Virus record (IMG/VR): IMGVR_UViG_3300036791_000462
Coordinates: 43,111-107,110 of that record
Direction: 5' to 3' (one strand)
Length of the DNA stretch: 64,000 nt
Source of the DNA: a virus
The notes under the pieces are model-generated. The model had not been told where the DNA came from. It ran no database searches and saw only the letters and a program-made list of their open reading frames with translations. The position numbers and the translations under genes are program-made. How positions within the stretch are numbered: position 1 is the stretch's first letter; each line of letters opens with the position of its first letter. Shown here one piece after another: positions 668 to 62,490 of this stretch.

Positions 668-714
668 CTCCTCGGTCGTTTCTCTACATCCAGCTTAGCA
701 CACAACGCGCGTTA
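668..714 (-). promoter_or_regulatory. Repeated cassette: palindrome 696-714, extended -10 (TGCTAAGCT), CGACCGAGGAG
   Basis: TAGCACAC-AAC-GCGCGTTA; the upstream gene's stop is at 712-714. Confidence 0.75.
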
Positions 715-981
715 GAAGCAGGTGTCGCAGGTGCAGTGTGGCTGCTTGCCGCTTCTGCAGGTCGCCATCGCTTTGTGCCTCGGCATGAACGGGTCGAGCA
801 GCGGGTGCTCAACGATCTCGCGACACTGCTCGCAGTTGGGGTCGTAGATGCCGAGCTTCTCCCAGCGCGCGAGGCGCTCCTCGCGGGTTTCGCTGGCCCC
901 GAACGGCGAGATCGCGAACACGGTCTGGTTGCCGTTCTCGTCAAAGCGCTCGACGCTGCGGTCAATCAGCGGTTGTCCCAT
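712..981 (-). CDS. Small Cys-rich hypothetical protein
   Basis: MGQPLIDRS...CEQC...HCTCDTCF; abuts the neighbouring gene. Confidence 0.5.
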   Translation of the reverse strand: MGQPLIDRSVERFDENGNQTVFAISPFGASETREERLARWEKLGIYDPNCEQCREIVEHPLLDPFMPRHKAMATCRSGKQPHCTCDTCF

Positions 982-1340
982 CAGTCCTGCCACCTCCTGG
1001 TTCCGGCTTCCTCGAACTCCTCGCGGGTGATCTCCTGCACCTCGGCGAGCGGCACGAACCCCGGCTCGCCACGCGGCTCCATCACCGAGTAGCACCACGC
1101 ACAGAAGCTCTCGCGCATCGACCAGGCGTAGCGGGCGGAGTCGGCATCCTCGCCGTACAGACGGATGCTGTACCCGTAGATCGTGATCGCCTTGGCGGGT
1201 GCCATCGAGACGTACACGATCCCGTCGCGCTCGAACGGCTCCTGCGGGTTGCCGCCCCAGCGGCGTTTGAAGTAGAGCGGCTGGCCGTCGAGCGCGAACG
1301 GCGCGTCCGGCTCGGCCTGGTAGTCGAAGGTCGTGCTCAT
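981..1340 (-). CDS. Hypothetical protein
   Basis: 119 aa ORF in a tightly packed, overlapping gene run. Confidence 0.6.
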   Translation of the reverse strand: MSTTFDYQAEPDAPFALDGQPLYFKRRWGGNPQEPFERDGIVYVSMAPAKAITIYGYSIRLYGEDADSARYAWSMRESFCAWCYSVMEPRGEPGFVPLAEVQEITREEFEEAGTRRWQD

Positions 1341-1573
1341 GCGTTCGCGAGATCGTCGTGCATCCGCCCGATCTCGGTCGCCCGGCGGATCTCGCGCAGG
1401 TCCGCCTGATCCTCCAGGTAGCGGGCGTTGAGTCGCATCGCGGCGATCTCCGCGTCAGCGAGCGACGGGTAGGTCTTCGCGTTCTGGGTGCTGTTCGGGT
1501 AGCGCTGGTCGATCACCTTGAAAAACGGCGTGTTCAGCGCGTAGGTGGTGGTCGCCTCGTATGGCAGGTTCAT
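1337..1573 (-). CDS. Hypothetical protein
   Basis: CGACCGAGGAG RBS upstream; overlap with next gene. Confidence 0.6.
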   Translation of the reverse strand: MNLPYEATTTYALNTPFFKVIDQRYPNSTQNAKTYPSLADAEIAAMRLNARYLEDQADLREIRRATEIGRMHDDLANA

Positions 1574-1978
1574 CTAGCCCTCCTCGGTCGTGGTTTGCAG
1601 CCGGTCGATCAGCGCGTCGATCCGCGCGTCCATGAGATCGCCCAACGTGGGATCCCTGTAGCGCCACGTGGCGAGATCGAAGTCGAAGTCGTAGAAGGCG
1701 ATCAGCGCCCGCTGCGCACGGTCAAGACGCTGGAACGCTCGGGTCGCGTGCGACCGGTTCGCGGGGCTGCGCCCGTCCTTGACCGCCACCACCTGGAACG
1801 TCGCGTCGGCTTCGAGCACCGTGCGCACGAGCGCTAGCTCGCGCCGGTAGAGCTTCGCGTCGTCACCGTCGGCGCGGAACATCCGGCGCTGCTCGGCGGC
1901 GATCAGCTTGACCTTCGACTGCTGCTCGGCGCTGTACGCGCGAGCCCAGGCGACCTTGCGTTTCATCAGCTTGCTCAC
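1574..1978 (-). CDS. Hypothetical protein
   Basis: 134 aa ORF, packed. Confidence 0.55.
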   Translation of the reverse strand: MSKLMKRKVAWARAYSAEQQSKVKLIAAEQRRMFRADGDDAKLYRRELALVRTVLEADATFQVVAVKDGRSPANRSHATRAFQRLDRAQRALIAFYDFDFDLATWRYRDPTLGDLMDARIDALIDRLQTTTEEG

Positions 1979-2154
1979 GCGGCGGTCTGCTCCTCGTAGA
2001 ACCCCTGCGCGCGCTCCTGTGTGGAGAAGCGGTGAACCTGGATCGCCGCGCCCTGCTTGATCGTCACGATCCAGTCGGGCGTCCGTTTGGTGGTCGCGGT
2101 TCGGTGGTCGATGTACGGAGCGGTGACGGTCCGCTCAGAAGTGGTGCTCATCAT
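1975..2154 (-). CDS. Small hypothetical protein (59 aa, below ORF-track cutoff)
   Basis: MMSTTSERTVTAPYIDHR... directly after the cassette RBS; GTGA overlap with next gene. Confidence 0.55.
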   Translation of the reverse strand: MMSTTSERTVTAPYIDHRTATTKRTPDWIVTIKQGAAIQVHRFSTQERAQGFYEEQTAA

Positions 2155-2156
2155 GG

Positions 2157-2907: not shown

Positions 2908-2969
2908 CCTCCTCGGTCGGTTGGAGGGGGAGCGTTTCCCACTAACATCCTAGCACAAAACGTGCGCTA
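2908..2969 (-). promoter_or_regulatory. Repeated cassette (palindrome 2951-2969)
   Basis: TAGCACAA-AAC-GTGCGCTA, TGCTAGGAT, CGACCGAGGAG. Confidence 0.7.
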
Positions 2970-4539: not shown

Positions 4540-4582
4540 CTCCTCGGTCGGGTAGACCAAGGGTAGCACACGACAGGAGCTA
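4540..4582 (-). promoter_or_regulatory. Repeated cassette (degenerate palindrome 4564-4582)
   Basis: TAGCACAC-GAC-AGGAGCTA; upstream stop at 4580-4582. Confidence 0.65.
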
Positions 4583-4907: not shown

Positions 4908-5639
4908 CTAGCCTGCAGCGGCTCCAGTATCGCCCCCACTTCCTCCGGTCCTTTCATCGTCGGACTGCAAGTCACGCGGAACCCCGAAGTCGGCAGCCAG
5001 TTGCGGGTCGATGGGAGGTGCCCCTTGATCCCACCCCGGCGGCGGTGTCCACGTTTGCTTGCCCGCACCCTTGCGATAGCGCAGCGGTTCCGGGGAGCCC
5101 GCCTCGAACGGCACGTCGATTCGCATCCCGGCGTCACGAATCTGCGTTTCGGTCATCCCCCCGGCCGGTAGCTCACTGGCCTGCGGGGGGTTCGGCAGGT
5201 CGCTGCTTGAGTCCGCTTCGCTCAACTGGTTCAAGTCCTGCAGCCACTGCGGGTCGTCGCCCGCGAAGTCCTCGTCCACCGGTCCTTCGGGCTCGGCGAC
5301 GCCCTGCACCGGCTCGGTCAGACGGTGCCTGCCGCCGACCATCCCGGCGATCTCCTCGGCGCTGGACGGCCACAGGTCATCCTGCGCCTGGGGGTTGGTC
5401 ATCCACCCGTTGTCGTTCTCAGAGAACGTGTCGCCGTCACCCGGTCCTGTCTGGCGGTACGGTGTCGTCCCGTCACGCAGCCAGTAGGTGTAGTCGCCGC
5501 CTTCGTAGTCCGATCTTGGTGGTCCCGGCAGCGGGCGTTGCGGCAGTGTTTGCGACGGGTCCGTTTCGCGGTTGACCGTCCCGCCTGGATCGACTGGTGC
5601 GAGCGGGTCGCGGGCCTCGTCCAACTCGTCGGCCATCAC
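4908..5639 (-). CDS. Acidic, Pro/Asp-rich hypothetical protein coupled to the zeta/NTase effector gene
   Basis: GTGA overlap with 5636..8494; low-complexity acidic sequence. Confidence 0.6.
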   Translation of the reverse strand: MMADELDEARDPLAPVDPGGTVNRETDPSQTLPQRPLPGPPRSDYEGGDYTYWLRDGTTPYRQTGPGDGDTFSENDNGWMTNPQAQDDLWPSSAEEIAGMVGGRHRLTEPVQGVAEPEGPVDEDFAGDDPQWLQDLNQLSEADSSSDLPNPPQASELPAGGMTETQIRDAGMRIDVPFEAGSPEPLRYRKGAGKQTWTPPPGWDQGAPPIDPQLAADFGVPRDLQSDDERTGGSGGDTGAAAG

Positions 5640-8494
5640 GCCACCCTCGGGCGCAGCACCCCGGTGAGCCGATTGCCCCGACGGGCGCGGTTACCTGTTG
5701 GTTCCTGGGTGCCTGCCAGGATCGCGTTGGTGCGCGCGGTCAGGCCCTTCAGTTCTCTGGCGGCAGCGCGCTGCTCGTCGCGGGTGCCGAGAATCACCTC
5801 GTGCGGGTCCGCGACGAGCCCGCCGTGCTGGGACACGCCCCACGCCCGGTCGTAGTACGGCTTCGCGGCTTTCTGCAGGTCCGCGACAACCTGTTTCTCG
5901 GCCGGTGTCGGCTCGCGTTTCTGCTGTTTGGCAAGCTCCTCGACCTGGCGTTCCAACTCGTAGTAGTGGTGGCCCGGCCCGATCTCCTTCGTCCACCACA
6001 GCGGGTTGGTGTTGACCTGAAGCTCGGTCGTCAGCCCACCGGCGGACTCGGGTGCGCGCAGGATCAGGGTCGTGTCGCCGTACCCGTTCTCCGTCGAGCG
6101 GTTCGACCCGTTCGCGTCCACCAGACGGCGTTTCATCCGCTCCACCGTCCAGCCCTTCGCAGCGACCTGCTGGCGGATCGTCGCGAGCGTGTGTTCGAGA
6201 TCCTGCGCGGTCGGGACGGTCACCGTCGCACGAACCGCGTCGTGCAGGTCAGAGAAGTCGTTCGCGTGACCCAGCGACGCCTGCTTCGCAATCGCTCGCT
6301 TCAGGCTCTTGATCGGCGCGACGATCAGGTGCGGCTGGTCCATGTTGTGCTGGATGTCCTGCCCGGTCTGCTGGAAGCTCTTGCCCTGCGAAATGTCGTG
6401 CTTGGTCCCGCCAAGCTGGTCGATCACGCCGGTGCCGATGTCGAGGATCTGCTGCAACGCCGGAAGCGTTTTCGACTCGCCTCGCGCGAGAAGCTCCTGC
6501 GGGTCGCTGACCGGCTGTTTCTTCTTCTCCCCGTCGCCGGTGATCCCGAACTGGTCGCGCATCGACTGAAACTCCTTCGAGACGTTGCGGCCCACACGAC
6601 GCTCGACCTCGGGGTTCGTTCGGGTCGTCTGCCCGCCCGTTTTCCAGACGCCGCGCTTCGGGCCTGCCACGTCACGCACGCCAGGTAGCTGCTCGTGCGC
6701 CTTGGCGAGCACCTGCGCGTACGCGCGGTCGGCAGGGATCGCGTAGTCCGAACCGTCGAGCTTCTTGTCCTCCGCGCCCGACGGGAAGCTGATCTTGCCG
6801 TCCGGCAGCGCTTGGGCTACGAGCCTCGGTGGGTTCGGTCGGCCGGACGCTTCGTCCAACCCCTGGTTGGTGTCGTACACGTGGACTCGCGCGCCCATCT
6901 GCGCCGCCTTGTCCATCACGCCGGGGATCGTCGCGGACACGTCGCGGTGGACCGCGCGCATGATCACGTCGGGGATCATGCGACCGCCCGCCTCGGCGTT
7001 CGCACGCGCCTTCTCGGCACGGTCCTTCGCGCGGCTGATCGCGTCGTTCGTCGGCGTGCTGACGTAGGAGATGCGCGGGTTGACGTACCCCGCGTCGGTG
7101 AACGACTTGACGCGCTTGGCGACCTCGTCGGCGTTCGTGTTCGTGATCCCGTCCACGATCACGTTCAGCTTGCGCTTCTGCGCCTCCGCCATCACGTGCT
7201 GCGCGATGTCCCACGCCTCGGCGTACACCCGCAGGTTCGCCTCCGGGTCATCCGCCGAGCTTGCCTGAAACTCGGGTAGCTCCGCCTTGATCAGGTCCGG
7301 GTCGAGGAGCAGCGCGTTCTGAGGCAGCGCATCCGGGTCGTCAGGGTGCTTCTGGCTGAGCATGTGCAACAGCCCGCCCTTCCCGGCCGCGTACCCACCG
7401 CCGGTGAACATCACGGTCGGCTTGCCGGACGGCGCTTTCAGATACGAGTTCGTTTTGCTGAGCCCCCGGTCGTTGCCCTTCGCGTCCAGGTTGTGCTCGC
7501 GCAGCATCATGTCGATGATCCGCGCGTGCAGCTTCGCGCGGGACTGGTCCCACGTGCCGTCCGGGTTGCGGTACATCTCAGCGGTCGTCGGCCTGGTGGT
7601 CGCATCCTCCGCGTACGCCAACAGCGTTTTCTGGGACACGCGGCCCGCATCGTTGAAGTGAACCTCCGCTTGGCTCAGATCATGCTCACCGCGAACCTGC
7701 CCAGCGGCCGGGGTTGAGCGTGACAGCCCGACGCGACGCACCCGGCGGCCGATCCGCTTCTCCAGCGACTTGGTGCGCCGTTCGTACAGCGCCGACTGGC
7801 CGTGCGCGAGCGTCTGCTTACGGTCGTGGATCGCGTTGGTGTGCGCCTGCTCCTTCGCGAAGTGCTCCGCCGCCGCCGCGTGGTCACCACGTTTCGCTGC
7901 CGCGTTGCCCGCCTTGCGTTCCTGGGTCGCGAGCCGCTCCAGGCGCTGGCGTCCAGCGAGGTGAACCTTCTGCGCGTCGGTGGCCTCCTGTTTGAACTGG
8001 CGCAGGCTCATCGCCTCCGGGAGCGTGCCGCCAGTCTGCACCGCCTTACCCGCAGGATGCGGTTCGGGGGTCGCGAACACGGGAAACTTCCCGCCTCTGA
8101 CGCCAGCCCGGCGGCCCTTCAGCACCTTGATCTCGCCCGGCATCCGCTCCGTCGGTGGGCGCTGGATCGTTTTCAGACGCGGGCCTGAGTGAACCGCTTT
8201 CGCGATCCGGTTCTGCGGCACGACCTCGTGGGAGCGGAGCTTCGCGTCGGCAAACGCGCCGCCGAGCTTGTCGATCCACTTCCCGCCACGGCCGCGCGGG
8301 TGCAGCACCTCGGTCCAGTCAACCTCCTGCAGGCCGGTGAGCGCCAGGTCGAGCACGCCTGCCTGCTCCCACAGGTCAAGTTCGGTGTGCGACACCCAGC
8401 CGATCCGGTCCAGATCGTCGGTGGTGGCGAGCCCCCGGCGCAAGAACTCCTCTCGGAGGGTGGCGTTCTCGCGCGCAATGGTGGCAGCCTCCAT
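5636..8494 (-). CDS. Tagged polyvalent effector: zeta-toxin-like P-loop kinase + C-terminal RelA/SpoT-like nucleotidyltransferase
   Basis: Tag LQEVDWTEVLHPRGRGGKWI. Zeta motifs TGGGYAAGKG, LLDPDLIKAELPEF, NVIVDG, GRMIP. RSH-synthetase-like motifs PIKSLKRAIAK, DLHDAVRATV, GYGD, ELQV. Confidence 0.75.
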   Translation of the reverse strand: MEAATIARENATLREEFLRRGLATTDDLDRIGWVSHTELDLWEQAGVLDLALTGLQEVDWTEVLHPRGRGGKWIDKLGGAFADAKLRSHEVVPQNRIAKAVHSGPRLKTIQRPPTERMPGEIKVLKGRRAGVRGGKFPVFATPEPHPAGKAVQTGGTLPEAMSLRQFKQEATDAQKVHLAGRQRLERLATQERKAGNAAAKRGDHAAAAEHFAKEQAHTNAIHDRKQTLAHGQSALYERRTKSLEKRIGRRVRRVGLSRSTPAAGQVRGEHDLSQAEVHFNDAGRVSQKTLLAYAEDATTRPTTAEMYRNPDGTWDQSRAKLHARIIDMMLREHNLDAKGNDRGLSKTNSYLKAPSGKPTVMFTGGGYAAGKGGLLHMLSQKHPDDPDALPQNALLLDPDLIKAELPEFQASSADDPEANLRVYAEAWDIAQHVMAEAQKRKLNVIVDGITNTNADEVAKRVKSFTDAGYVNPRISYVSTPTNDAISRAKDRAEKARANAEAGGRMIPDVIMRAVHRDVSATIPGVMDKAAQMGARVHVYDTNQGLDEASGRPNPPRLVAQALPDGKISFPSGAEDKKLDGSDYAIPADRAYAQVLAKAHEQLPGVRDVAGPKRGVWKTGGQTTRTNPEVERRVGRNVSKEFQSMRDQFGITGDGEKKKQPVSDPQELLARGESKTLPALQQILDIGTGVIDQLGGTKHDISQGKSFQQTGQDIQHNMDQPHLIVAPIKSLKRAIAKQASLGHANDFSDLHDAVRATVTVPTAQDLEHTLATIRQQVAAKGWTVERMKRRLVDANGSNRSTENGYGDTTLILRAPESAGGLTTELQVNTNPLWWTKEIGPGHHYYELERQVEELAKQQKREPTPAEKQVVADLQKAAKPYYDRAWGVSQHGGLVADPHEVILGTRDEQRAAARELKGLTARTNAILAGTQEPTGNRARRGNRLTGVLRPRVA

Positions 8495-8804: not shown

Positions 8805-9038
8805 CTATCGTGCGCTTGCGACCCACTCTCGATAGAGGCTCATCACCTCATCCGGCGCGTAGCTGCGCGCGTCCAGGTCAAGCCACTCCAGGAACCGTAG
8901 TGCGCGGTCCTCCGAGGACTCGCCATCTTCGCCTTCCTCGAACACCGGTCCGAACGCGATCCCGGTCACGCTGTCGTACAGCACCGCGACCTCGCGGGAG
9001 TCGCCCGTCTCAAACCCGATGATGATCCTGACGCTCAC
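8805..9038 (-). CDS. Hypothetical protein
   Basis: 77 aa, VLYDSVTGIAFGPVF; plausible codon usage. Confidence 0.5.
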   Translation of the reverse strand: MSVRIIIGFETGDSREVAVLYDSVTGIAFGPVFEEGEDGESSEDRALRFLEWLDLDARSYAPDEVMSLYREWVASAR

Positions 9039-13125: not shown

Positions 13126-13178
13126 CTCCTCTCGGTCGGGAACCGGTTTGGAGCATAACGCACGACGGGTGATAGAGT
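13126..13178. promoter_or_regulatory. Divergent copy of the cassette (palindrome 13156-13174)
   Basis: TAACGCAC-GAC-GGGTGATA; -10 TATGCT on minus and TG-A-TAGAGT on plus, at a strand switch. Confidence 0.65.
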
Positions 13179-14386: not shown

Positions 14387-14433
14387 CCTCTCGGTCGGTG
14401 TCCCACCACCAGCATAGCGCACGTCGTGCGTTA
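14387..14433 (-). promoter_or_regulatory. Repeated cassette (palindrome 14415-14433)
   Basis: TAGCGCAC-GTC-GTGCGTTA, -10 TATGCT, CGACCGAGAGGA. Confidence 0.7.
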
Positions 14434-46780: not shown

Positions 46781-46804
46781 GTCAGGTTCCTCGGTCGGTA
46801 CTGC

Positions 46805-47230: not shown

Positions 47231-47274
47231 GGTTCTCCTCGGTCGTGTTGGTCAGGCGGTCGCGGCCCGGAAGA

Positions 47275-49019: not shown

Positions 49020-49084
49020 CTCCTCGGTCGGTTGGTGCGGCCCCTCTGACCGCACCACCAGTATAGCGCACATCGTGTGCTCTA
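49020..49084 (-). promoter_or_regulatory. Repeated cassette (palindrome 49064-49082)
   Basis: TAGCGCAC-ATC-GTGTGCTC, TATACT, GGTGCGG/CCGCACC hairpin. Confidence 0.8.
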
Positions 49085-49285
49085 GCTGACGCTGCTGAGG
49101 ACGCCGTCCACGATCTGGTAGTTGACGGGCTCGTCGCTCTCGACAACGCGCGTGTCGCGGACCAGGGTCCAGCGCATGGACAGGTCGCGAACGTACATCT
49201 GCGCCTCGGCCTCGGTCGCGAAGCGCAGCGCGTTCCCGGCCCACGTGCCGCTGTCGTCAGCGATCACCTCTGCTTTGAAGCTCAT
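49082..49285 (-). CDS. Small conserved phage protein
   Basis: WAGNALRFATEAEA..Y..DL..RW..V.DTRV.ESD.PVNY. Confidence 0.6.
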   Translation of the reverse strand: MSFKAEVIADDSGTWAGNALRFATEAEAQMYVRDLSMRWTLVRDTRVVESDEPVNYQIVDGVLSSVS

Positions 49286-49879
49286 GTTTCACCTCCCCTC
49301 TCCACTAGCTCGACAAGGGTGTCGGGATCGACCCAGCGCAGCGTGGTCCGCAGCCCCTGTGGGGTTACGTCGAGCCGCGCGAGCTTGACCTTGTCGGAGC
49401 GCTGGCCGTCGAAGTAGATGACCGTCTCGTACAGCGCCTTACCGCCGACGATGCGGATCCGCTTGTCGCCCTCGTAGCCGATCAGATCCCACGCGCGGAC
49501 GACGCCCCACCAGTCCACGGTGTTGGTGCAGGTCGTACATTCGACGCGGCCGTCCGGCCGGTTGATCGTGTCGCGGTCTTCGTAGCAGACCGCGCACCAC
49601 ATCAGCGGTCCCCCCTCAGCGATGCGCGCACGGCCTGGCGGCTGCGCTTGTCCTTGCGCACGCGGCCCTTGCCGGACTTGCCCATCGCCCCGGCGCTGTT
49701 GCGCTGGTGGGCAGCGACGGCGACCCAGGAGCGAACCTTGGTCTGTTTGGCGCTCATGCCCACAACTCCTCATCGAAGTGGTGCCAGAGCGGCGAGCGGC
49801 CGTACTGCGAGTCGGTCCACGGCGCGTCGAGCGCGTTGATCCAGCTTTGGATCCATGCCCTGAGCTTTCTCATCGCTGC

Positions 49880-49943
49880 CTCCTCGGTCGGTGGGGGCGG
49901 GGCCTCTCTCCCGCACCACCAGTATAACACACAACGTGTGTTA
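49880..49943 (-). promoter_or_regulatory. Repeated cassette (perfect palindrome 49925-49943)
   Basis: TAACACAC-AAC-GTGTGTTA, TGTTATACT; upstream stop at 49941. Confidence 0.85.
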
Positions 49944-50571
49944 GCTGCGTGCCCGGAGAACTGCGCGGCCCTTGTCGGTGATCCGCCAGCGCTCATGCGC
50001 GTTGCGCGACACGAGCCCGCGCTCCTCCAGCCGCCAGAGCACGTCGGAGCGGACGCCCAGCCACTTGGCGGTACGTCCGTTGCCGAACTCCAGCGAGCCG
50101 AGCACGGTCATCTGTCGGCGCGTCAGCTTCACGAGTCGTCGTCCTGCGCGTAGGGGTCGCGCCAGCCTCTGTCTTCACCGGCTCGCCACGCCGCCCACGA
50201 ATCGAGTTCGTCTTCGGTATCCATCGCGAGGTCGAGCAGCCGGTCGCGTTCCGCCAACTCGTCGTCAGTCAGCTTGCGCTGGCGCGGCAGCCCCCACCCG
50301 TAGTCCTGGCTGTCCCAGGTCATCACGCCTCCAGCGCCCGAGCGAACCCGAACGTGGCCTTGGTCTTGGTGGTCGCGGCCTCGGTCAGCATCACCGCGCC
50401 GACGTTGATCGTGATCGTCTCGCCGTCGGTCGTGATGAACTGGCGGATCCCGTCGTCGTCGCCCATCGTCCGGCGCTTCAGCGTCGAGCCGATATCGGCG
50501 GCGCGGCCCTTGACGGTCCTGGCGAGCCCGTTTGCGAAGTACAGAGTGGTCGCTGCGTCCATCCTTCAGGC

Positions 50572-50636
50572 CTCCTCGGTCGGGGGAGATTGCGCCCTTG
50601 GGGGCGCACCTAAAGAATAGCACACATCGCGCGCTA
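50572..50636 (-). promoter_or_regulatory. Repeated cassette (palindrome 50618-50636)
   Basis: TAGCACAC-ATC-GCGCGCTA, TGCGCCC/GGGCGCA hairpin; HNH stop at 50634. Confidence 0.75.
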
Positions 50637-51272
50637 GCGCACCCTGCGAGAGTGCCCTTTGATGAAGTGCGTCGGCTGTCCCTTCACGTGTCCCTTCGCG
50701 CTGTTCGTCATCTTCGCGATGGACGTTCTCTGACCGCAGCCGCACTCGCACAATCCGGGACCGAAGACCGGTTCTGGACGCTCAACTCGATCCCAGGTGT
50801 CCCCTCGTACCGCCATCTGCACGGTCGAGATCGAGACGCCGTATTCGTCGGCGAGAGCACGGCTGCGTTCGCCTGTGTGGTAGCGCTCGCGAATCGCTCG
50901 CACGCTCTCCAGGGTTAGCCTGCTCGCCTGCCGCTCGCGGTCGTACATATCGGCGGCGTTGTCGCGCTGGCTTCCGCCAAGCAGATGCGACGGGTTACAG
51001 CAAGGCGGGTTGTCGCAGGTGTGTCTGACTGATCGCGGCAGCGTGCCGTGGGTCAACTCGAAGATCAACCGTGTGGCTTGCCGAACTTTTTGGCCTCCCT
51101 CCACCACGACCACAAGCTGCCCGTAGCCATGGCTCTGCCTTCCCACCCAGAGCCAGCACTCGTCCGGTCCGCGAACGTCAACCTTCGCCCACAGCCGCTC
51201 GATCAGTCGCGAGGTCCACGGCGTCTCAGTACCCGTCGTCGTCGCTGTCGTCGTCGCTGCCGTGGAATCCAT
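50634..51272 (-). CDS. HNH endonuclease with HTH and Cys-rich C-terminus
   Basis: ECWLW...GYG...VRHTCDNPPCCNPSHL.GS..DN..DM; LCECGCG; start uncertain, overlaps the TerL end. Confidence 0.85.
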   Translation of the reverse strand: MDSTAATTTATTTGTETPWTSRLIERLWAKVDVRGPDECWLWVGRQSHGYGQLVVVVEGGQKVRQATRLIFELTHGTLPRSVRHTCDNPPCCNPSHLLGGSQRDNAADMYDRERQASRLTLESVRAIRERYHTGERSRALADEYGVSISTVQMAVRGDTWDRVERPEPVFGPGLCECGCGQRTSIAKMTNSAKGHVKGQPTHFIKGHSRRVR

Positions 51273-52977
51273 TGCTGTCGTCGTAGACGTACGAGCCGTC
51301 GTCACGGCCTGGGGAATACTCCATCGAGTCTTCGCGCAGCGTCGAGCGCTGGAACCCCAGTTGTTCCATCTCGTCTATGGACGTGATCTCCTCGCGACCC
51401 ACCTGTTGCCGTATCCAAAGACATTCCGACGCAACAACAGAGTAGCAAAAGGCTTGCATGTAGTCGTCGGGACCGTCGGCGCGGTAGAGCACCTTGACCT
51501 TGCCGAGATCGTCCTGCTCGACAGAGCGGACGTTCGAGCACATCTGCGCGACGAATGCTTCAGGGAGGTCTTGGGGGAGGTGTTCGCGTTGGGCGCGGAT
51601 GCGTTCCTGGGCAGCGTCTATCGCCTCGGTGCGCCGCACGCTCGCGCGGCGTTGGAGGTCGTTCACGGTCAGCACGTCCTTCTGCTCGCCGGTGGCGTAG
51701 TTGACGATGAACACGCGACCGGCGAAGCGGTTCGCAAACGCTGCCGCGAGACGCCCTTCGGGGAGGTGGTCGATGCCTGCCATGTTCACCCGGAAGCGGT
51801 CCATCAGCTTCGCGAGATCCTCGAAGCTGTCCACCAGCCCGACGTGCAGCGCGCGGCTCTGGGTGTCGCTCGTGTGCTCGCTGACCCACACGTTCAGCGA
51901 GCGGGTGCTCGCGACATCGACGCCCATCGTGACGGGGTTGGCCCCGGTGTACGCCTGCTGCTGGGTGTAGTCGCGCTGGGCGGCAGCGATCATCGCAGCG
52001 GTCAGCCTCGCTCCCTCGGCCTCCCACGGCTCCCCGAGATCGCGGTTGTAGAAGACCTGGCGGCGGTAGACCACCTGTTCGCGGGACGCGGCGATCAGCT
52101 TCGGAACGATCTCCTCGCTGGGGAGGATCAGCTTTGTCACGTGGTAGCCGCGCACGTCACGGCCGGGGTAGGTCGCGACCCACTCGCCGACGGCGACGTT
52201 CAGTGGACCGCGACGACACTGAGAACACACCCTGCCGCCGCGATCCAGGTCTATGTTCTCAGGCCACCGCACCGCCTGCCACAGGCCGCAGAACTCGCAG
52301 CGGACAGTCCACTCGCGCTGGTCACTCTTGTCCCACTCCTTGTGGATCCCGTGCTGAGAGATCGTCGGGAAGCCGATCCGGCGGATCAACCCGAGCGAGT
52401 CCTGCCCGCCGACACGGCGCTCGGCGATAGGGATGTGCGCCTGGACCAACAGGTCGTGCTCATCGAGGCACAGCGCGTCGGCGTCGATGCTCTCAAGCCC
52501 GGCCTCGGCCTCGCTGCCTCGGAAGTAGCAGATCCCGAGCCCCACGGACTTCAGCGTCTTGTTCATCACGCTGGCGGGCGGGACGCGGGTGCGGAGGTAC
52601 TCGCCGAGAATCAGCGGTTTGATGCGCCCGTCGGAGAAGTCGAGTAGCTGACGTTCGCGTGGGAACAGGTAGAGCACGCGCGCACCGTGCATGTCGGCCC
52701 AGCACAACGCCCAGCGCACGAGCCACGCGGAGATCCCAAGCTGGGTCGCTTTCATCACCACAACCTCTTTGTCATCGAACCCCTGCTCGTAGAGTTCGCG
52801 CTGGAACGGCCAGCGGCGGAAGTCGAGCGGGCCTTTGGATTCGGGCACCTTGATCGCCCAGTCCAGGAAGCTCGCGCGGCGCTGCTCGGCGGCGTCCAGG
52901 TCGGATTGGAGCGCGTCGAGGAAAGCGTCGGTGACGCTCAGCTTGAAGCTGTCACGCGGATCGAGCTTCAGCGGCAC
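51226..52977 (-). CDS. terL: Terminase large subunit (gpA-like)
   Basis: VVMKATQLGIS, YLFP, LCLDEHD, GFPT, CEFC..CSQC, FYNRDLGEPW, MGVDV, PDDYMQA. Confidence 0.9.
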   Translation of the reverse strand: MPLKLDPRDSFKLSVTDAFLDALQSDLDAAEQRRASFLDWAIKVPESKGPLDFRRWPFQRELYEQGFDDKEVVVMKATQLGISAWLVRWALCWADMHGARVLYLFPRERQLLDFSDGRIKPLILGEYLRTRVPPASVMNKTLKSVGLGICYFRGSEAEAGLESIDADALCLDEHDLLVQAHIPIAERRVGGQDSLGLIRRIGFPTISQHGIHKEWDKSDQREWTVRCEFCGLWQAVRWPENIDLDRGGRVCSQCRRGPLNVAVGEWVATYPGRDVRGYHVTKLILPSEEIVPKLIAASREQVVYRRQVFYNRDLGEPWEAEGARLTAAMIAAAQRDYTQQQAYTGANPVTMGVDVASTRSLNVWVSEHTSDTQSRALHVGLVDSFEDLAKLMDRFRVNMAGIDHLPEGRLAAAFANRFAGRVFIVNYATGEQKDVLTVNDLQRRASVRRTEAIDAAQERIRAQREHLPQDLPEAFVAQMCSNVRSVEQDDLGKVKVLYRADGPDDYMQAFCYSVVASECLWIRQQVGREEITSIDEMEQLGFQRSTLREDSMEYSPGRDDGSYVYDDSNGFHGSDDDSDDDGY

Positions 52978-54632: not shown

Positions 54633-54929
54633 TTAGAACGGCTCGACGGGCTCGACCTTCAGTTTCTTGGTGATCTCCTCACGGGTACGAAGCGCTTCGG
54701 CCCAGTTACGCATCGGGACTGCGCGCCAGATGCCCTCGCGGCCCTTCGCGACCTCGGTGACAGCGTTGTGGCGGATCGTGGTAGTCGCGCCACCGGCTTC
54801 GACCCATGCGACCACGGTGTCGCCGTTGTCGTCTTTGAGTTCGCGCTGTTCCAGCACGACGTACTCGGTCGGCTGCTGGGTGCGGCCGTTCGTCTTGCCG
54901 TCTTCTTTGGCTGCCGCTTTGGTCGCCAT
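54633..54929 (-). CDS. Hypothetical protein
   Basis: 98 aa, coupled to the HTH gene. Confidence 0.5.
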   Translation of the reverse strand: MATKAAAKEDGKTNGRTQQPTEYVVLEQRELKDDNGDTVVAWVEAGGATTTIRHNAVTEVAKGREGIWRAVPMRNWAEALRTREEITKKLKVEPVEPF

Positions 54930-55258
54930 CAGCTTGCCGCCGCGCGCTTGCGGGTGCGCTTTGGTTTGACCGGCTCTGGTTCCGGCTCGGGTTCGGGGTC
55001 ACGGTTGCGGCGGTTCGCTTCTACCCAGTCGCTCATGCGCTCGATGTCCTTCCGGTGCCAGATCGGGGTTGCTTGTAGTCTCGCTGCTGTCGGTGGCATC
55101 ACGCCTCGCTTGATCCAGCGACCGATGCGAGGTCGCTCGACGCCGAGGAGTTCCGCGACCTCTGCGGTGCCGACGACATCGAGTTGCCGGACCTGCTTCG
55201 GCTGCTTCGGCCTTGGGGGTATGTGCCCGTTTCTTTCTAGGATTTTGACGCTGCTCAT
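54929..55258 (-). CDS. Excisionase/AlpA-like HTH regulator
   Basis: VVGTAEVAELLGV....IGRW.....MP.P.A.LQATPIW...DIE; own TGTGTTATGCT promoter. Confidence 0.75.
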   Translation of the reverse strand: MSSVKILERNGHIPPRPKQPKQVRQLDVVGTAEVAELLGVERPRIGRWIKRGVMPPTAARLQATPIWHRKDIERMSDWVEANRRNRDPEPEPEPEPVKPKRTRKRAAAS

Positions 55259-55639
55259 ACCCTCCAGCATAACACAAGATTGGCGCTTGGTGCGGTCAGC
55301 GTCCCATCCGGCGTCGGATGGCATCGAGGGTCGGGCAGATGTACCCGTTGTAGCGGTGGGTGCAGCCCTCGCCGAGCGCGGCGATCTCCGCCATCGTGGT
55401 GCGGGTCGTGATCGGGCACCGGCATCCCCGGTTGCGGTCTAGCTCATCGCGGATGATCGTCTGCAGCTTGGTGCGAGCCTCCTGCTCGCGGTGGCGCTCC
55501 GCGCCCTCCTGTAGCCGGTCGCGGTCGCGCTGCCGTTTGCGAGCGGCGCGCTCCTCCTCTAGCGGTGTCGTCATCACAGCCATCGGGTTCTCCTCGGTCG
55601 GGTGGTGCCCGACGGCGGGTGACCGCCGGGCACCTGGGG

Positions 55640-56433: not shown

Positions 56434-56678
56434 CAGCGTTCGTCTTCTCTACGGGTCGCGAAGTGGAACCCGTGGCAGAAGCTGCACTCGTAGATGCACT
56501 TGCCAGAGACTCTGTAGCGCTCGGCATGTGTGATTGCAGCCTGGCGCGTTTTGAACCTGCGCTTCGGTTTACCGTCTGCGCGGAAGTGTTCACCAACTAT
56601 CCTGGTCACTGCAGACTCCTCGGTCGATGTGGAGTGACCCGAAGGCCACTCACACATTATAGCATCCGAGGTGTAAGG

Positions 56679-57338
56679 TCAGTCGATCCGCGACTCACCG
56701 TAAGCGGTGATCCCACCCTCGCGCAGCACCTCGGCGACCGCGTAAGCGGCTGCCTCCCACCTGGTCAGTGACTGTGAGCCACGGTCACCGCAGATCTTCC
56801 ACAGGCTCATGCGCACACCGCCCGCGTAACTGTCAGGTGAGCCGTAGCCCTCCTTGATCAGCCACCGTGCGAATCGTGAGCCGCCCGGCCGGACGCTCAC
56901 CCAACCGAAGCCGCAGACACCCTCGCGCACTTCGTAGATGTTCTCGTTGGGATCGAACCCGCCGCCGTCGCCGCCCATCAGCGACCCCATCACGTCCTTC
57001 GGCGTACCGACGTACATCGTTGTCGGGATCGCTTCCCGGAATGCTTTCTCGCCAGCCTCAGCCGCACGTGCGAGCAGGGACTTCATCTCGGCCGTGCTCA
57101 GCTTGGTCGAGCCGCCCCCGCCGCTTGCCTTGTTCCGGCAAGTCGAGCAGATCGCGTACTCGCTCAGGGAGCCAGCGTCCTGACGCTCGATCCGACCGCG
57201 ACTCCACGAGCCGCGCCGGTCGCCCTTGATCTCGGACACGTCCTTGCCGCAGATCGTGCGACTGGAGTCGGAGTCGGTCGCGTAGTGCCAGCGGGGCTGA
57301 CGGTACGCGCCCGGATTGGTCTTCCGGATCGCTTCCAT
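56679..57338 (-). CDS. Hypothetical protein (CGFGWV motif)
   Basis: GVCGFGWV.V.PG...FARWL...QS....EAAA.A.A.VL...GI.AY..SRID. Confidence 0.65.
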   Translation of the reverse strand: MEAIRKTNPGAYRQPRWHYATDSDSSRTICGKDVSEIKGDRRGSWSRGRIERQDAGSLSEYAICSTCRNKASGGGGSTKLSTAEMKSLLARAAEAGEKAFREAIPTTMYVGTPKDVMGSLMGGDGGGFDPNENIYEVREGVCGFGWVSVRPGGSRFARWLIKEGYGSPDSYAGGVRMSLWKICGDRGSQSLTRWEAAAYAVAEVLREGGITAYGESRID

Positions 57339-57347: not shown

Positions 57348-57460
57348 CTCCTCGGTCGGGGGAAGTCGGGGCTATCACCCCGCACCTACAGAGTAGCACA
57401 TATCGTGTGCTGGGCGTGCTATGATGTTCGTGCGGGCATGAGCCCGTATGACCGAGGAGG
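57348..57460. promoter_or_regulatory. Divergent cassette pair
   Basis: Palindrome 57394-57412; plus-strand TGCTATGAT; (C)GACCGAGGAG on both strands. Confidence 0.75.
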
Positions 57461-60186: not shown

Positions 60187-60248
60187 CGTTTCCTTTCAGC
60201 CCAGGGGAACGGGCGGCCACGTGGCCGCCCGTTCCTCGGAGCTACTTG

Positions 60249-60977
60249 CTATTCGCCGTTGCCGTTGGCGTCGGCGGGGGCGCGGAACTTGAACGCTCCC
60301 TCTGCCTTGTCTTGGGCGGTCTTCATGGCCTTGCTGAGTTCCCGGTTTGCGGGGGCCTTCAGCGCCGGTACCTGCTTGGCCCACAGGCCGATCTTCTCGC
60401 CGGTCGCACCGGCGAGACGACCGATCTTGTCGAGTTCCGGCCGGACGGCATCCTGCCGGATGTACTTTTCTTCGGCAGTCAGATAGACCAGGGTCTTGGT
60501 CTTGACGAGCATCGTGCCGTCTTCCCGTTCAGCGATGGTGCGCTGGAGCGGGCCGCCGGGGTTCATGTCGAACGCTTTCCAGACCTTCGTGCGTGCAGCT
60601 TCCCACGCATCGCGTTCTGCCCCGTCGAGGGCGTCCCAGGCGTTTTCGTCGTCTGGGGTAGCCATGCCGTCGATAACGGCTCCGGTGACCTCGTCGCGGT
60701 CGGCGGAGCCGTCGTGCGTGTTCTTGTCCACCACGAGGTCATGCTGGTCAACCTGGTCAAGGACGCGGTCGCGGATCGCGTCGAGATCGAGATTCTCGAC
60801 AATCCCCCCGTTCTTGTCCCTGCTGAGCTTGGTCAAGCCACGCTCACGGAACAGCCGACGGCTGTTGATCTCAATCAGCCCGCTACTGGAACTGTTGAGT
60901 TTGACGGAAGTCTCATACGACTCCGCCGCTGATTTTGCGTCCTCCTCGGTGAACGCATCGGTCGCTGTAGCAACCAT
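60249..60977 (-). CDS. Hypothetical protein
   Basis: 242 aa with GGAAGGAG RBS. Confidence 0.6.
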   Translation of the reverse strand: MVATATDAFTEEDAKSAAESYETSVKLNSSSSGLIEINSRRLFRERGLTKLSRDKNGGIVENLDLDAIRDRVLDQVDQHDLVVDKNTHDGSADRDEVTGAVIDGMATPDDENAWDALDGAERDAWEAARTKVWKAFDMNPGGPLQRTIAEREDGTMLVKTKTLVYLTAEEKYIRQDAVRPELDKIGRLAGATGEKIGLWAKQVPALKAPANRELSKAMKTAQDKAEGAFKFRAPADANGNGE

Positions 60978-61167
60978 TTTGGACTGCTCCTTCCTCCCGT
61001 GCCGAAATCCCGGTAGGGGATAGACGGTCGGGGGTCCGGGGTTTACGACGGGGAAGCTAGCGAGTCCGGTTCACGATGTCAAGGGGTCGGTCGTGAAGGG
61101 GTACCAGAGGTTATCGTAGGTCATCCTCGGGTATCTAATGTCACCTCAGTTAGCTACCATCCGAATC

Positions 61168-61407
61168 ATGCCGAACGTCACCGAAACCGCTCTCGTAGGA
61201 GTCGCCGAAGCTGCCGAGATCCTTGGCGTGTCCCGTGCGCTCGTGGGCCGCTGGCACCGCACGGGGACGGTGGCACTCGCCGACGGACGGCGGGTGCTGT
61301 TCCCCAAGCCGGTCGCTCAGCTTCGGGCTACGCCCGTCTGGCGGCAGGCGGACATCGAGCGGCTGCGTGATGCGCGCAACGCCCCGGCCGACATCAGGCC
61401 GGTTTAG
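61168..61407 (+). CDS. Excisionase/AlpA-like HTH regulator (paralog of 54929..55258)
   Basis: LVGVAEAAEILGV....VGRW...FPKPVAQLRATPVW...DIE. Confidence 0.75.
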   Translation: MPNVTETALVGVAEAAEILGVSRALVGRWHRTGTVALADGRRVLFPKPVAQLRATPVWRQADIERLRDARNAPADIRPV

Positions 61408-62411
61408 AGCCCGTTGCGGATCTCGCGGACCTTGGTCACCAGCGCTTCGGCGTCGGCCTGTTCGCCCTCCCGCCGCTGCTCCAGCACCTTCTCGTCGGCG
61501 AACTCCATGACGGCGTCGATCACGATCTGGGCCAGCACGTCGGGTGGTAGCGCCTCAAGCTGGGCGGTGTCACCCGAGCCGCCCGCCGCGATCTGCTCGG
61601 CCTGCCAGCGCAGTCGTTTGGTGCGCTCGCCGCGCATGCGCAGCGTGTCGGACGGGATGTGCAGCAGTTGCTCGATCACGTTGTGGTCGATGATCTGGTC
61701 GATGGTCAGCGCCAGCCGCACGGGCTGGAACAGCCCGAGCCACTCCGTTACCTGCTCTGTCGTCGGCTCCTCGCTCGCGCGTCTCGCTGCGCGCACTCGA
61801 TCCTGCGCGGCGAACATCTGCGCGTCTTCGGCCAGCGACTGGTAGATGACCGTCCCGTTCGGGTCGTTGTCGCCGACGTGGAGCATCACCGTCGGCTTGT
61901 TCTCGGCACGCGAGGCGTCGGCGAGCGCTTTGACGACGGTCAGGCTGGTTTGCCCGCCGCCGGAATGCACTGTGCAGGGGAGGTCGCCGAGCGCGCGTTG
62001 AAGCTGGGGCTTTGTGCCTGCCGCTTCGGTCCAGACGATGATCCGGTAGGGCTGGCCCTCCGCTCTGTGGCGGCGGTGGTTTCCGGCGCGCTTTTCGGTG
62101 AGCGTCCAGAAGTCGCCTTGGCGGATCTCTACGTCCGTGCGCGGCACGGCCAGACCTTCTACGTCGGCGTCGGTGATGCTCTCGAAGGGGATCAACTCCG
62201 CACGTCTTGCGTTCGCGATGTGTCCCACCAGGCTGTCGTAGGCCGCGTCCGATTTGCCGATCACGCCTTTGCCAATCAGCCGGTAGAAGATCTGCCGAAC
62301 AGTCAGCGGAAGGTAGTTCTCGTACTCGTCCAGGACTGCCTCGACGTGGGCGAGTAGCTGCAGCGTTTCAGGCTTGAATCGGTGATCGGGCTTGTAGCCG
62401 CGCACACTCAT
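61404..62411 (-). CDS. TOPRIM-domain protein (TopoVI-A/JetD-like)
   Basis: LTVRQIFYRL, IVWTE, HVGDNDPNG (DxD), RLALT, QLEALPP. Confidence 0.75.
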   Translation of the reverse strand: MSVRGYKPDHRFKPETLQLLAHVEAVLDEYENYLPLTVRQIFYRLIGKGVIGKSDAAYDSLVGHIANARRAELIPFESITDADVEGLAVPRTDVEIRQGDFWTLTEKRAGNHRRHRAEGQPYRIIVWTEAAGTKPQLQRALGDLPCTVHSGGGQTSLTVVKALADASRAENKPTVMLHVGDNDPNGTVIYQSLAEDAQMFAAQDRVRAARRASEEPTTEQVTEWLGLFQPVRLALTIDQIIDHNVIEQLLHIPSDTLRMRGERTKRLRWQAEQIAAGGSGDTAQLEALPPDVLAQIVIDAVMEFADEKVLEQRREGEQADAEALVTKVREIRNGL

Positions 62412-62420
62412 AGACTTCGT

Positions 62421-62490
62421 CTCCTCGGTCGGTTGTCCCCTCAGGGTAACACGAGACGTGTGCTATGCTCAGGCAAATTGACCGAGGAGG
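62421..62490. promoter_or_regulatory. Divergent cassette (palindrome 62447-62465)
   Basis: TAACACGA-GAC-GTGTGCTA; -10 on both arms; GACCGAGGAG on both strands. Confidence 0.8.

Follow-up and report, generated by a model that had tools for sequence, protein, structure and literature searches.

A dispersed gene-header cassette with a predicted promoter, a putative operator and a leader hairpin in an uncultured phage lineage

Stem-loops that stabilise a transcript at its 5' end are known from the ompA leader and the leader of T7 gene 10, and dispersed operators answering to a single regulator from the C1 operators of phage P1. T4-type phages carry promoter-early stem-loop (PeSL) cassettes (Arbiol et al. 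2010, PMC2839356; Comeau et al. 2014, PMC4122927), Cluster K phages the SAS and ESAS elements (PMC3203893, published in 2011; PMC12699233), Cluster O phages the 17-bp palindrome TGTTCGG-N3-CCGAACA (PMC4351075) and Cluster A phages the stoperators (PMC6550527, PMC9283540). Here we describe a cassette of about 50-80 bp, repeated before about twenty transcription units in an uncultured phage; it combines the ideas of PeSLs, SAS/ESAS elements and dispersed operators and is a member of none of these groups. It was analyzed in a window of 64,000 nucleotides (nt), namely bases 43111-107110 of the linear 107,110-bp IMG/VR virus record IMGVR_UViG_3300036791_000462; coordinates are those of the window unless stated otherwise. 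An earlier note on this DNA had described the cassette as a 19-bp palindrome with an extended -10 element, a leader hairpin and a ribosome-binding motif. Our analysis suggests that it is probably a standard gene header of three layers, i.e. a host promoter bearing a putative operator, a 5' hairpin and an extended ribosome site. The conserved modular header as such is real, but it is a variant of designs known from other phages.

The likeness to PeSLs and to SAS/ESAS elements, pointed out in the earlier note, holds for the design and not for the sequence. The SAS consensus GGGATAGGAGCCC, with up to two mismatches allowed, gave 2 matches against 1.37 expected and is not enriched. Like a PeSL (PMC2839356), the cassette is a dispersed intergenic module reaching from stop to start codon, which joins a predicted host-sigma promoter, dyad symmetry and a Shine-Dalgarno sequence, occurs in dozens of copies per genome and is enriched before small ORFans in plastic regions, where genes seem to move between slots. 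In PeSLs, however, the stem-loop is variable (polyG/polyC), differs in position and was shown to terminate transcription, whereas the present cassette has a spacer dyad of fixed sequence without covariation and, separately, a covarying hairpin after the predicted start that lacks a T-run. Further differences are the fixed 11-nt ribosome motif, the other phage lineage and the G+C-rich genome. Shared with SAS/ESAS elements are a fixed Shine-Dalgarno motif (11-13 nt) with a single orientation, a few bases ahead of the start codon in some of the genes, the joining of about half of the copies to an upstream inverted repeat with non-compensatory departures, and the conservation at orthologous genes. 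ESAS elements are imperfect 17-bp repeats with a spacer of 4-13 bp and have not been described as part of a promoter, while the repeat found here is of the 8-3-8 type, fused to the -10 element and 10-40 nt away from the motif. The 5' hairpin has no counterpart in Cluster K, whose members are temperate siphoviruses of 60 kb, in contrast to the myovirus-like phages of 110-134 kb studied here, in which no integrase was found.

With dispersed operators the cassette has in common that one short site occurs 20-35 times per genome, presumably serving one phage protein. The arm-N3-arm geometry recurs in the Cluster O palindrome (7-N3-7), but in Cluster O the sites have no fixed link with the predicted SigA promoters and are often located within genes. 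Stoperators are asymmetric 13-mers that are bound by monomers and block elongation in lysogens; here, by contrast, a symmetric 19-bp site is built into each predicted promoter, in a phage without lysogeny genes seen.

The dispersed occurrence of the cassette was borne out, the element being present at all 15 positions at which it had been reported. The degenerate pattern proposed for the palindrome matched exactly at 14415 and 49925 only; eight sites departed from it by one mismatch, four by two and the site at 4564 by three. Because the strict pattern gave only these two exact matches, it was replaced by mismatch-tolerant scans. At up to three mismatches the window contains 20 palindromes, compared with 1.84 ± 1.44 in shuffled sequences, and none of 100 shuffles reached 20. 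The 19-bp consensus is TAGCRCAC-GWY-GTGTGCTA. Like most genes, the cassette reads 5' to 3' on the minus strand, with the palindrome at the high coordinate, followed by the -10, the hairpin, the motif and the start codon. A DNA pattern derived from the cassette detected 11 loci on 8 IMG/VR contigs, and the same element was present on at least six related phage contigs. Three relatives were taken whole, G001 (122,349 bp), G002 (110,271 bp) and G003 (122,419 bp), which are about 73% identical to the record across about one third of the length. Each of them carries 17-25 palindromes at up to two mismatches, against 0-2 in shuffles. Orienting and deduplicating the copies of the four genomes (the record and G001-G003) yielded a set of 98 promoter-oriented copies. 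The more distant relative G006 (IMGVR_UViG_3300049571_000258, 134 kb; loci L078-L086) was used for comparison. Furthermore, palindromes are carried by all 18 IMG/VR loci with a helix-turn-helix (HTH) protein at least 63% identical to the one described below, and 17 of the 18 also have the ribosome motif CGACCGAGGAG.

The extended -10 element claimed for one arm of the palindrome was confirmed. Among 85 palindromes selected by their arms in the four genomes, 84 have TAnnnT on at least one side; 59 of 85 would lack it by chance, and a single one does. The terminal TA of the palindrome forms the first two bases of this -10, mostly in the context TGTGnTAnnnT, and the right arm supplies T-17, G-16, T-15 and G-14 in 92, 97, 82 and 98 of the 98 copies, respectively. 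We take this pattern to be the TRTGn form of an extended -10, as known from Gram-positive bacteria. In 17 of the 98 copies a TTG precedes the -10 at a distance of exactly 17 bp; at no other offset is it seen in more than one copy. In about 12 copies, compared with about 2 expected, an ATG that opens a long open reading frame (ORF) follows the -10 after 6-11 nt and the gene would be leaderless; examples are 33944 and the HTH gene at 55270 (7 nt in both), G002 91558 and 107037, and G003 8053 and 117747. Leaderless genes have their start codon at the transcription start, 6-10 nt after the -10, and no Shine-Dalgarno sequence; the geometry expected of them was seen at 33944, at 55270 and at about ten sites in the relatives. 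Copies without the ribosome motif head a tRNA-Glu and a structured RNA at 25544 and at the orthologous positions in G001 and G003. The promoters of G006 consist of TTGACA/G, a 17-nt spacer and TATAST, lack the TG motif and hold the same spacer element in between; one copy lies about 9 nt before a tRNA and two are leaderless. Such an exchange of the -35 for an extended -10 is a known property of sigma-70-type promoters. Judged by its sequence, the element is a promoter for the host primary-sigma (sigma-70/SigA-type) RNA polymerase, and we infer a transcription start about 7 nt after the -10. A scan of 43900-51000 with the canonical -35/-10 consensus called none of these promoters, since they lack a -35. 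A sigma-70 region-2 match was confined to G003, so the family as a whole has no recognisable phage sigma factor. The upstream gene ends with the TAG, TAA or TGA of the left arm in at least 5 of the 17 copies of the record, which accounts for the R and G variants at arm positions 2-3 and for the tight packing of the module.

A restriction of the cassette to early or accessory genes, as previously suggested, is not supported. Small ORFans headed by cassettes are numerous where gene content is plastic (41.5-50.6 kb, 0-5 kb and 12-20 kb), and the same promoter also heads the unit that runs from the HTH regulator gene to the terminase, the unit of the portal and the MuF-like or large virion proteins, a core gene of 609 amino acids (aa), the tRNA, and a 48-aa gene that opens a 21-kb head-tail block extending to the major capsid protein. 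Outside the cassettes, a census of 10-mers gave no second dispersed motif except the ribosome motif, and inspection of the gaps before the capsid, sheath, terminase and portal genes gave no shared alternative promoter. Since structural and packaging units are cassette-headed and a second dispersed promoter motif was not found, the cassette looks like a general promoter type of the phage.

The palindrome extends from -29 to -11 and so covers the whole 17-bp spacer and the first two bases of the -10. Conservation in the arms is 65-99% per position and extends to the centre (G-W-Y), whereas variation is seen in the inner -10 bases, the flanks and the leaders. The two arms do not covary. They form 664 pairs (G-U included), against 666.6 ± 2.9 when the right arms are shuffled among sites, the Watson-Crick counts at every arm position equal the expectation under independence, and departures in one arm are never compensated in the other. 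Folded as an RNA, the palindrome would have 5-6 Watson-Crick pairs of 8 and a mean folding energy of -6 kcal/mol. Because the sequence is fixed and the arms do not covary, the palindrome looks like a putative site that a dimeric DNA-binding protein reads as sequence. The sole systematic asymmetry is at arm position 5, where the left arm has G and the right arm (mirrored) A, which is T-15 of the TG motif; this points to a polymerase requirement overlaid on a symmetric site. Near-consensus promoters keep the full palindrome, for instance G003 90331 (TTGCGC, 17 nt, TATGAT with TG) and the TTGACA promoters of G006. Hence, the palindrome does not appear to be needed for polymerase recruitment, which is the main argument for negative control. 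The idea of a single-operator regulon, put forward in the earlier note, agrees with this picture in that one palindrome type is common to the promoters and fits one regulator. An apparent operator logic is seen in two places: the palindrome at 57348-57459 overlaps two promoters at once, the minus-strand one in its spacer and -10 and the plus-strand one in its -35 zone, a layout kept in G001, G002 and G003, and at 62447 one palindrome gives a -10 on each strand. In G006 the site reads (A/T)AGCACAC-GAY-GTTAGC and is not accompanied by CGACCGAGGAG.

A hairpin near the transcript 5' end had likewise been proposed, and the stem does sit at the predicted 5' end. It is present at 2196, 44085, 45455, 47938, 49064, 49925, 50618 and 57394 and weak at 2951; the short leaders at 696, 4564, 13156, 14415 and 62447 have none, and the copy at 41499 lacks hairpin and motif alike. 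Among leaders of at least 20 nt, 39 of 41 fold (mean -13 kcal/mol; mean z -2.6 against shuffles), the pairing starting 3-7 nt after the -10. The stems differ in sequence, with 24 different 5-nt arms among the 39 hairpins, and arms taken from different sites are fully complementary in 7% of the pairings. In orthologous cassettes before the 48-aa gene, the stems GCGAGGG/CCCTCGC, GCGGGC/GCCCGC and GGAGGG/CCCTCC are compensatory. RNAalifold found no pairs in a plain MAFFT alignment of the leaders, in which stems of differing length were misaligned; a covariance model (R1), which aligned 52 copies, was therefore used. In this alignment, which is fitted to the structure of the model and thereby favours it, 82.4% of the cells are paired compared with 64.8 ± 2.4 in shuffles (0 of 500 reach this value), 36 cells compared with 16.5 are changed on both sides, and the covariation score is 0.235 compared with 0.094; after sliding of the partners it does not exceed 0.063. 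Purines predominate in the loops, many of which resemble GNRA loops, e.g. GAGA. No T-run follows the hairpin, and a terminator scan of 43900-51000 called none of the leader hairpins. As the stems covary, the leader hairpin looks like an RNA structure. 5'-terminal stem-loops are known to protect mRNA, and by analogy the role of the hairpin would most likely be protection of the 5' end and insulation of the ribosome site. As in the ompA and T7 gene 10 leaders, a stable hairpin at or near the 5' end (predicted in this case) is followed by a strong ribosome site; the difference is that here it is a reusable module on about ten transcripts per genome.

The ribosome-binding motif, CGACCGAGGAG, usually accompanies the cassette; it is missing, for example, at 41499 and 25544. 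It occurs exactly 19 times in the window, always on the minus strand, and 33 times with at most one mismatch, against 4.5 expected. The whole record has 22 exact copies and G001-G003 have 22-29 each, whereas the reversed pattern, used as a control, gave 0 throughout. Its distance to the start codon peaks at 5-7 nt (4-8 nt in our reading of the window) and every copy faces the same way as its gene. In the four genomes 62 of 129 motifs are linked to a palindrome promoter, and most of the others stand at intra-operon gene junctions. Within the motif, AGGAG(G) matches CCUCC, the anti-Shine-Dalgarno sequence of the 16S tail; CGACC would presumably fall past the point where a typical 16S rRNA ends, out of reach for pairing. 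We regard (CC)CGACCGAGGAG as a predicted extended Shine-Dalgarno sequence with an unexplained 5' extension; it may be called a start-associated sequence as this term is used for Cluster K. The motif is confined to a narrower clade and absent from the loci with a diverged HTH protein (L068 of G006, L069 and L070). In a literature search the string turned up in unrelated papers only, mostly on eukaryotic or Streptomyces genes, and never as a phage motif. Promoter, hairpin and ribosome site are separable layers, as there are leaderless promoters, tRNA promoters without the motif, and about half of the motifs lie within operons without a promoter.

Among 126 ORFs of 45-340 aa, the only DNA-binding Pfam families were HTH_17, with one member, and a weak match to HTH_20. 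Orthologues of the HTH_17 gene are present in all four genomes; in every case a palindrome promoter immediately precedes the gene, and the leader is very short or missing. Its product is a MerR-like winged-HTH protein of about 85-110 aa with the recognition helix GVERPRIGRWIKRG and belongs to the best conserved proteins of the family, with 70-88% identity in 52 metagenomic clusters, many of them on contigs of 110-125 kb. The AlphaFold model (predicted local distance difference test score 80.5) has a winged HTH, a C-terminal helix of 18 residues and a disordered tail. The nearest structures in Foldseek were RacA (5i44), the MerR-family protein HiNmlR (5d90), BldC (6ama) and excisionases, with E-values of 6e-3 to 2e-2 and a root-mean-square deviation of about 1.9 Å across 51-59 aligned residues. 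A role as excisionase is unlikely, given that no integrase was found. At L070, whose HTH protein is 49% identical, a palindrome with a leaderless ATG is kept at the promoter of the HTH gene itself. We tentatively consider the HTH_17 protein as a possible binder of the palindrome, and G006 and L070 give a hint of co-evolution between regulator and half-site. An operator dyad between -35 and -10 and a candidate binder modelled with a MerR-like winged-HTH fold recall MerR systems. The spacer, however, is 17 bp wherever a -35 is seen, compared with 19-20 bp in those systems, and the candidate has neither a long coiled coil nor an effector domain. A second, diverged HTH_17 paralogue of 89 aa is encoded at 61138-61407 (+); it has the recognition helix GVSRALVGRWHRTG and an insertion of 10 residues, has orthologues of its own kind (P0052) and may read a different site.

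We propose that the cassette works as follows. The host primary-sigma polymerase would use TAnnnT, preceded in this clade by TGTGn and, in a minority of copies, by a TTG 17 bp upstream. A dimeric protein bound to the palindrome would most likely exclude the polymerase, since the site covers -29 to -11. One repressor could in this way shut or throttle about 20-25 transcription units at once. The best candidate for this repressor is the MerR-like HTH protein (54929-55258), the one HTH protein conserved in the family, whose own leaderless promoter carries the site. The first transcribed base would lie about 7 nt beyond the -10, within or right at the base of the G+C-rich, purine-loop hairpin, and this hairpin would probably protect the mRNA from RNases that depend on the 5' end and shield the ribosome site from upstream context. 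Finally, AGGAG(G) of (CC)CGACCGAGGAG would pair with the 16S tail, and CGACC would not.

Besides the structure-fitted alignment behind the covariation scores, several points weigh against this proposal. The right arm of the G006 site (GTTAGCTA) mirrors the left arm (AGCACAC) at 5 of 7 positions, which weakens the picture of a strictly symmetric dimer. The link between the HTH protein and the palindrome is circumstantial; most ORFs belong to no family, and a host factor is possible. The HTH protein does not have the long dimerisation helix of true MerR proteins, and relatives such as BldC bind direct repeats, not palindromes. The preference for repression over activation derives from the position of the putative site only. 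With one promoter type throughout, moreover, a simple repressor alone does not explain the timing of late genes.

A spacer palindrome could also act in the opposite sense. It may dock an activator or a sigma-appropriating factor, in which case the promoter class would be switched on and not off, as with the MotA box of T4 middle promoters or with MerR-type activators in the spacer. TTG is missing at the -35 of 81 of the 98 copies, and the right arm with the -10 is found without the left arm in four cases only, no more than chance, both of which would suit such positive control. The MerR-like fold of the candidate protein would suit it too, MerR proteins binding between -35 and -10. Still, we regard positive control as unlikely. 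The spacer has the optimal 17 bp and not the 19-20 bp of MerR-type activation, and the palindrome is retained even in copies with TTGACA/17 nt/TATACT or with TGTGnTATGAT, which should make strong promoters without help. In many bacteria an extended -10 is enough for activity when a -35 is missing, and the stretch from -29 to -11 includes positions contacted by sigma regions 2.4 and 3.0.

The cassette-rich stretches are plastic in gene content, and about half of the first genes behind a cassette are without a homologue in the three relatives; 8 of 18 have a homologue that likewise follows a cassette. The slot is not the same in every genome for several genes, e.g. 49082-49285, 981-1340 and 8805-9038. 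These observations would fit a PeSL-type composite, in which palindrome and hairpin are RNA stem-loops that stop upstream transcription and the conserved blocks are recombination points at which small genes are shuffled. The location between a stop and the next start codon, with the left arm often providing the stop codon, and the fact that the stem-loop of PeSLs commonly lies between or over -35 and -10 (PMC2839356) point in the same direction. Nevertheless, such a composite seems improbable. The palindrome, with its few Watson-Crick pairs and weak mean folding energy, is free of compensatory changes and conserved in sequence and not in structure, which is the reverse of PeSLs, and the hairpin, placed downstream of the predicted start and without a T-run, would terminate the transcript that carries it. 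A part played in recombination would go together with the operator-bearing gene header without taking its place; recombination at the conserved blocks is plausible as a side effect or a second function.

That a host transcription factor binds the palindrome, so that the phage senses the state of its host, we consider very improbable. Most phage ORFs are without a recognisable DNA-binding domain, and the site has hardly changed between phages with 27% DNA divergence, as if its reader were a slowly evolving host protein. However, in 185,579 reference genomes the extended promoter-leader pattern (right arm, -10 and hairpin start; not the palindrome alone) gave 7 scattered single matches in unrelated taxa, which we read as chance, and no host regulon turned up. 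We know of no actinobacterial operator consensus (CIRCE, LexA, IdeR, CRP, NrdR) that the palindrome resembles, and the site has been retained at the promoter of the phage HTH gene, in a distant relative as well. Lastly, that the copies, being many and short and plausibly recombining with each other, are alike merely through recent duplication or gene conversion, with a functionless spacer, is hardly credible, as conservation is limited to the arms and the -10 contact bases while inner -10, flanks, stems and leader lengths vary freely within genomes, and as the same consensus is found in four genomes whose flanks are about 73% identical or unalignable.

Seven full cassettes were identified on the minus strand of the window. 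The first, at 2157-2214, has a TTG at the -35 (cTTGTCC), the palindrome at 2196-2214, the -10 TATGAT at 2192-2197, a hairpin at 2168-2187 (-11.6 kcal/mol), the motif at 2157-2167 and an ATG at 2154. It is followed by 44045-44103 (palindrome 44085-44103 with the left arm TGA..., -10 TATGAT, hairpin 44056-44075, motif 44045-44055, ATG 44038) and by 45413-45473 (palindrome 45455-45473, -10 TATGCT, hairpin 45426-45447, motif 45413-45423, ATG 45407), the homologous G001 gene of which also has a cassette. Next are 47899-47956 (palindrome 47938-47956, -10 TACGAT, hairpin 47911-47928, TGACCGAGGAG at 47899-47909, ATG 47892), 49020-49082 (palindrome 49064-49082, -10 TATACT, hairpin 49033-49057 with -18.8 kcal/mol, motif 49020-49030, ATG 49013) and 49880-49943 (exact palindrome 49925-49943, -10 TATACT, hairpin 49893-49920, motif 49880-49890, ATG 49873). 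The last, 50572-50636 (palindrome 50618-50636, -10 TATTCT, hairpin 50587-50611, motif 50572-50582, ATG 50562), also has counterparts at the homologous genes of G001 and G002.

The cassettes with a short leader are on the minus strand as well. At 668-714 the palindrome (696-714) is followed by the -10 TAAGCT (692-697), CGACCGAGGAG (668-678) and the ATG at 662 of a 249-aa gene; the upstream gene ends with the TAA of the left arm. The cassette at 4540-4582 has a decayed left arm (3 mismatches), the -10 TACCCT, the motif at 4540-4550 and an ATG at 4533. At 13128-13174 we found the palindrome (13156-13174), the -10 TATGCT, the variant motif CGACCGAGAGG (13128-13138) and an ATG at 13120, and at 14387-14433 a TTG at the -35 (aTTGCGC), an exact palindrome (14415-14433), the -10 TATGCT and a variant motif (14387-14397). 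The cassette at 2909-2969 (-), with palindrome 2951-2969 and -10 TAGGAT, has a weak hairpin (2925-2943), the motif at 2909-2919 and the TTG start of a 141-aa gene at 2901. At 41495-41517 (-) the palindrome, with the -10 TAGGCT, precedes a long leader without hairpin or motif, upstream of a 122-aa gene and the portal operon.

Among the degenerate copies listed in the earlier note, that at 20041 is real, an 8-4-8 variant (TAACACAC-GTCA-GGTGCGTA) within the cassette 20005-20059 (-), with the -10 TACGCT, the motif at 20005-20015 and a 96-aa gene. The copy near 56660 also held up, the cassette 56616-56676 (-) having a decayed left arm, the -10 TATAAT, the hairpin GTGGCC/GGTCAC and the motif at 56616-56626. 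The copy at 55270 turned out to be the leaderless promoter of the candidate regulator gene; this feature, 54929-55288 (-), comprises the HTH_17 gene (54929-55258, 109 aa as called) and at 55266-55288 the variant palindrome AAGCGCCA-ATC-TTGTGTTA with the -10 TATGCT, 7 nt before the ATG. At 25544 a copy exists, but on the plus strand and without the motif: 25544-25592 (+) is a promoter with 5' hairpin (-10 TATGTT, 25561-25566) that heads the structured RNA and the tRNA-Glu (25939-26012). No support was obtained for 26571, which lacks TAnnnT and was not recovered by the covariance model. Further copies were found beyond that list: the leaderless one at 33932-33962 (-), the plus-strand promoter at 57416-57459, the plus-strand reading of 62447, and four upstream of the window at record positions 21183, 36936, 37728 and 43007. 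In the leaderless copy the palindrome lies at 33944-33962, the -10 TAAAAT (33940-33945) holds the stop codon of a 530-aa gene, and the ATG at 33932, 7 nt on, opens a 508-aa gene (508/515 aa). Three sites with three mismatches were set aside, 42176 and 56515, being inside genes and without TAnnnT, and 38686, where a shifted leaderless promoter is unproven. At 38667-38704 (-) a 3-mismatch palindrome is followed by TAGGGT and, after 6 nt, by the ATG of a 166-aa gene behind the portal gene, and 38686 may be such a shifted promoter.

The divergent control region at 57348-57459 has on its minus side the palindrome 57394-57412, a hairpin at 57363-57387, the motif at 57348-57358 and a 219-aa gene, and on its plus side a half-site only (GTGCTATGAT), a -10 at 57420-57425, a hairpin and TGACCGAGGAG at 57449-57459. 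The 219-aa protein, encoded at 56679-57338 (-), is 65-70% identical in all relatives and always located at the divergent control region. It has a Cys-rich N-terminus (CGK...CSTC) and falls into a PHROGs family of unknown function; no Pfam family matched it, and the ESM Atlas gave a virus cluster only. In a Pfam search with ten proteins around divergent promoters no match was obtained. The two-way promoter at 62421-62489, with its palindrome at 62447-62465, reads TACCCT with the motif at 62421-62431 and a 335-aa gene on the minus strand, and TATGCT with TGACCGAGGAG at 62479-62489 on the plus strand. Copies of CGACCGAGGAG without a promoter are at the intra-operon junction 1580-1590 (-) and at 14686-14696, 21427-21437, 24058-24068, 47235-47245 and 55590-55600; a large hairpin precedes the last of these.

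Between the plus-strand cassette promoter and the tRNA-Glu(CUC) there is a conserved structured RNA of about 105 nt (25567-25940, +; core about 25641-25760), the orthologues of which follow G001 16165, G002 4827 and G003 98875. Its outer stem of 6 bp (GCCCCG/CGGGGC) is followed by an ACC-like tail; further parts are a long composite arm and a hairpin resembling a T-arm (CCGGGyTCrryTCCCGG), and 13 of 40 predicted pairs have compensatory changes among four sequences. Neither ARAGORN nor Rfam called it; it may be tRNA-like or Y-RNA-like. The tRNA-Glu (CUC; 25939-26012, +), which lies on the strand opposite to almost all genes, is kept in G001 and G003, and in G003 a tRNA-Thr adjoins it.

The record has 66% G+C and a CheckV completeness of 86%, and nearly all genes of window and record lie on the minus strand. 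PHROGs identified the large terminase (51226-52977), the portal (38696-40789) and large proteins with MuF, ADP-ribosyltransferase and kinase matches in the window, and major capsid protein, tail sheath, tube and tape measure upstream of it. On account of the sheath, tube and tape measure matches together with the head and packaging genes, the phage is predicted to be myovirus-like. Very large proteins form a run after the portal gene at 29734-38138 (-; 868, 530, 515 and 891 aa), with PHROG matches to a minor head protein, an ADP-ribosyltransferase and a kinase-like stretch; the leaderless cassette promoter 33944 lies inside this array, and a further protein of 952 aa is encoded at 5636-8494 (-). 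A megablast of 8 kb against 50,697 phage records gave no match, and in tblastn the large terminase and the capsid protein were about 27% identical to any isolate; searches with terminase, capsid protein and lysin returned only distant relatives (about 27%) or relatives from mixed hosts. This is a phage lineage without a cultured member. Among sequencing runs, DNA of the record was found in soil metagenome DNA only. The leaderless starts and the extended -10 give a hint of an Actinomycetota host, against which counts that a WhiB gene was looked for and none is present. Tyrosine or serine recombinases (integrase, resolvase) were not found in the four related genomes, two of which are at least 99% complete, and the phage family looks virulent. 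G003 carries direct terminal repeats; the family is taken here as uncultured phages of 110-134 kb with terminal repeats. The Pfam tally of the record also contains a Mom-family protein, a HicA toxin domain, RusA, SSB, a GH19 lysin (28189-28986) and separate Amidase_2 and PG_binding_1 matches. The nearest relatives of the GH19 lysin are from phages of Myxococcus, Corynebacterium, Ochrobactrum and Microcystis, which does not reveal the host.

The cassette offers a regulatory map for a lineage without cultured relative. In each genome it marks about 20-25 transcription units together with the probable position of their 5' ends, and it points to a leaderless class and to one candidate regulator-operator pair. 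Within a single 60-bp module, a dyad of the protein type (sequence fixed, no covariation) stands beside a dyad of the RNA type (sequence free, covarying), which provides a yardstick for other dispersed phage palindromes. The function of SAS/ESAS-type elements has been a puzzle since 2011; in the present case ribosome motif and inverted repeat are separable, and one of them clearly belongs to the promoter. The cassette is also a compact natural part of promoter, stabiliser and ribosome site, which may work in G+C-rich bacteria. A wider picture, which we hold to be doubtful, is that a virulent family of about 120 kb runs nearly its whole genome (accessory genes, packaging, head, tRNAs and regulator) from one operator-bearing host-sigma promoter type, with the MerR-like mini-protein as master switch or rheostat and a second phage factor that reads CGACC. 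If this were true, the reader of CGACC could be, for example, a RegA-like translational regulator or a processing nuclease, and the master switch could serve a timed shut-off, the superinfection exclusion of relatives or a dormant carrier state.

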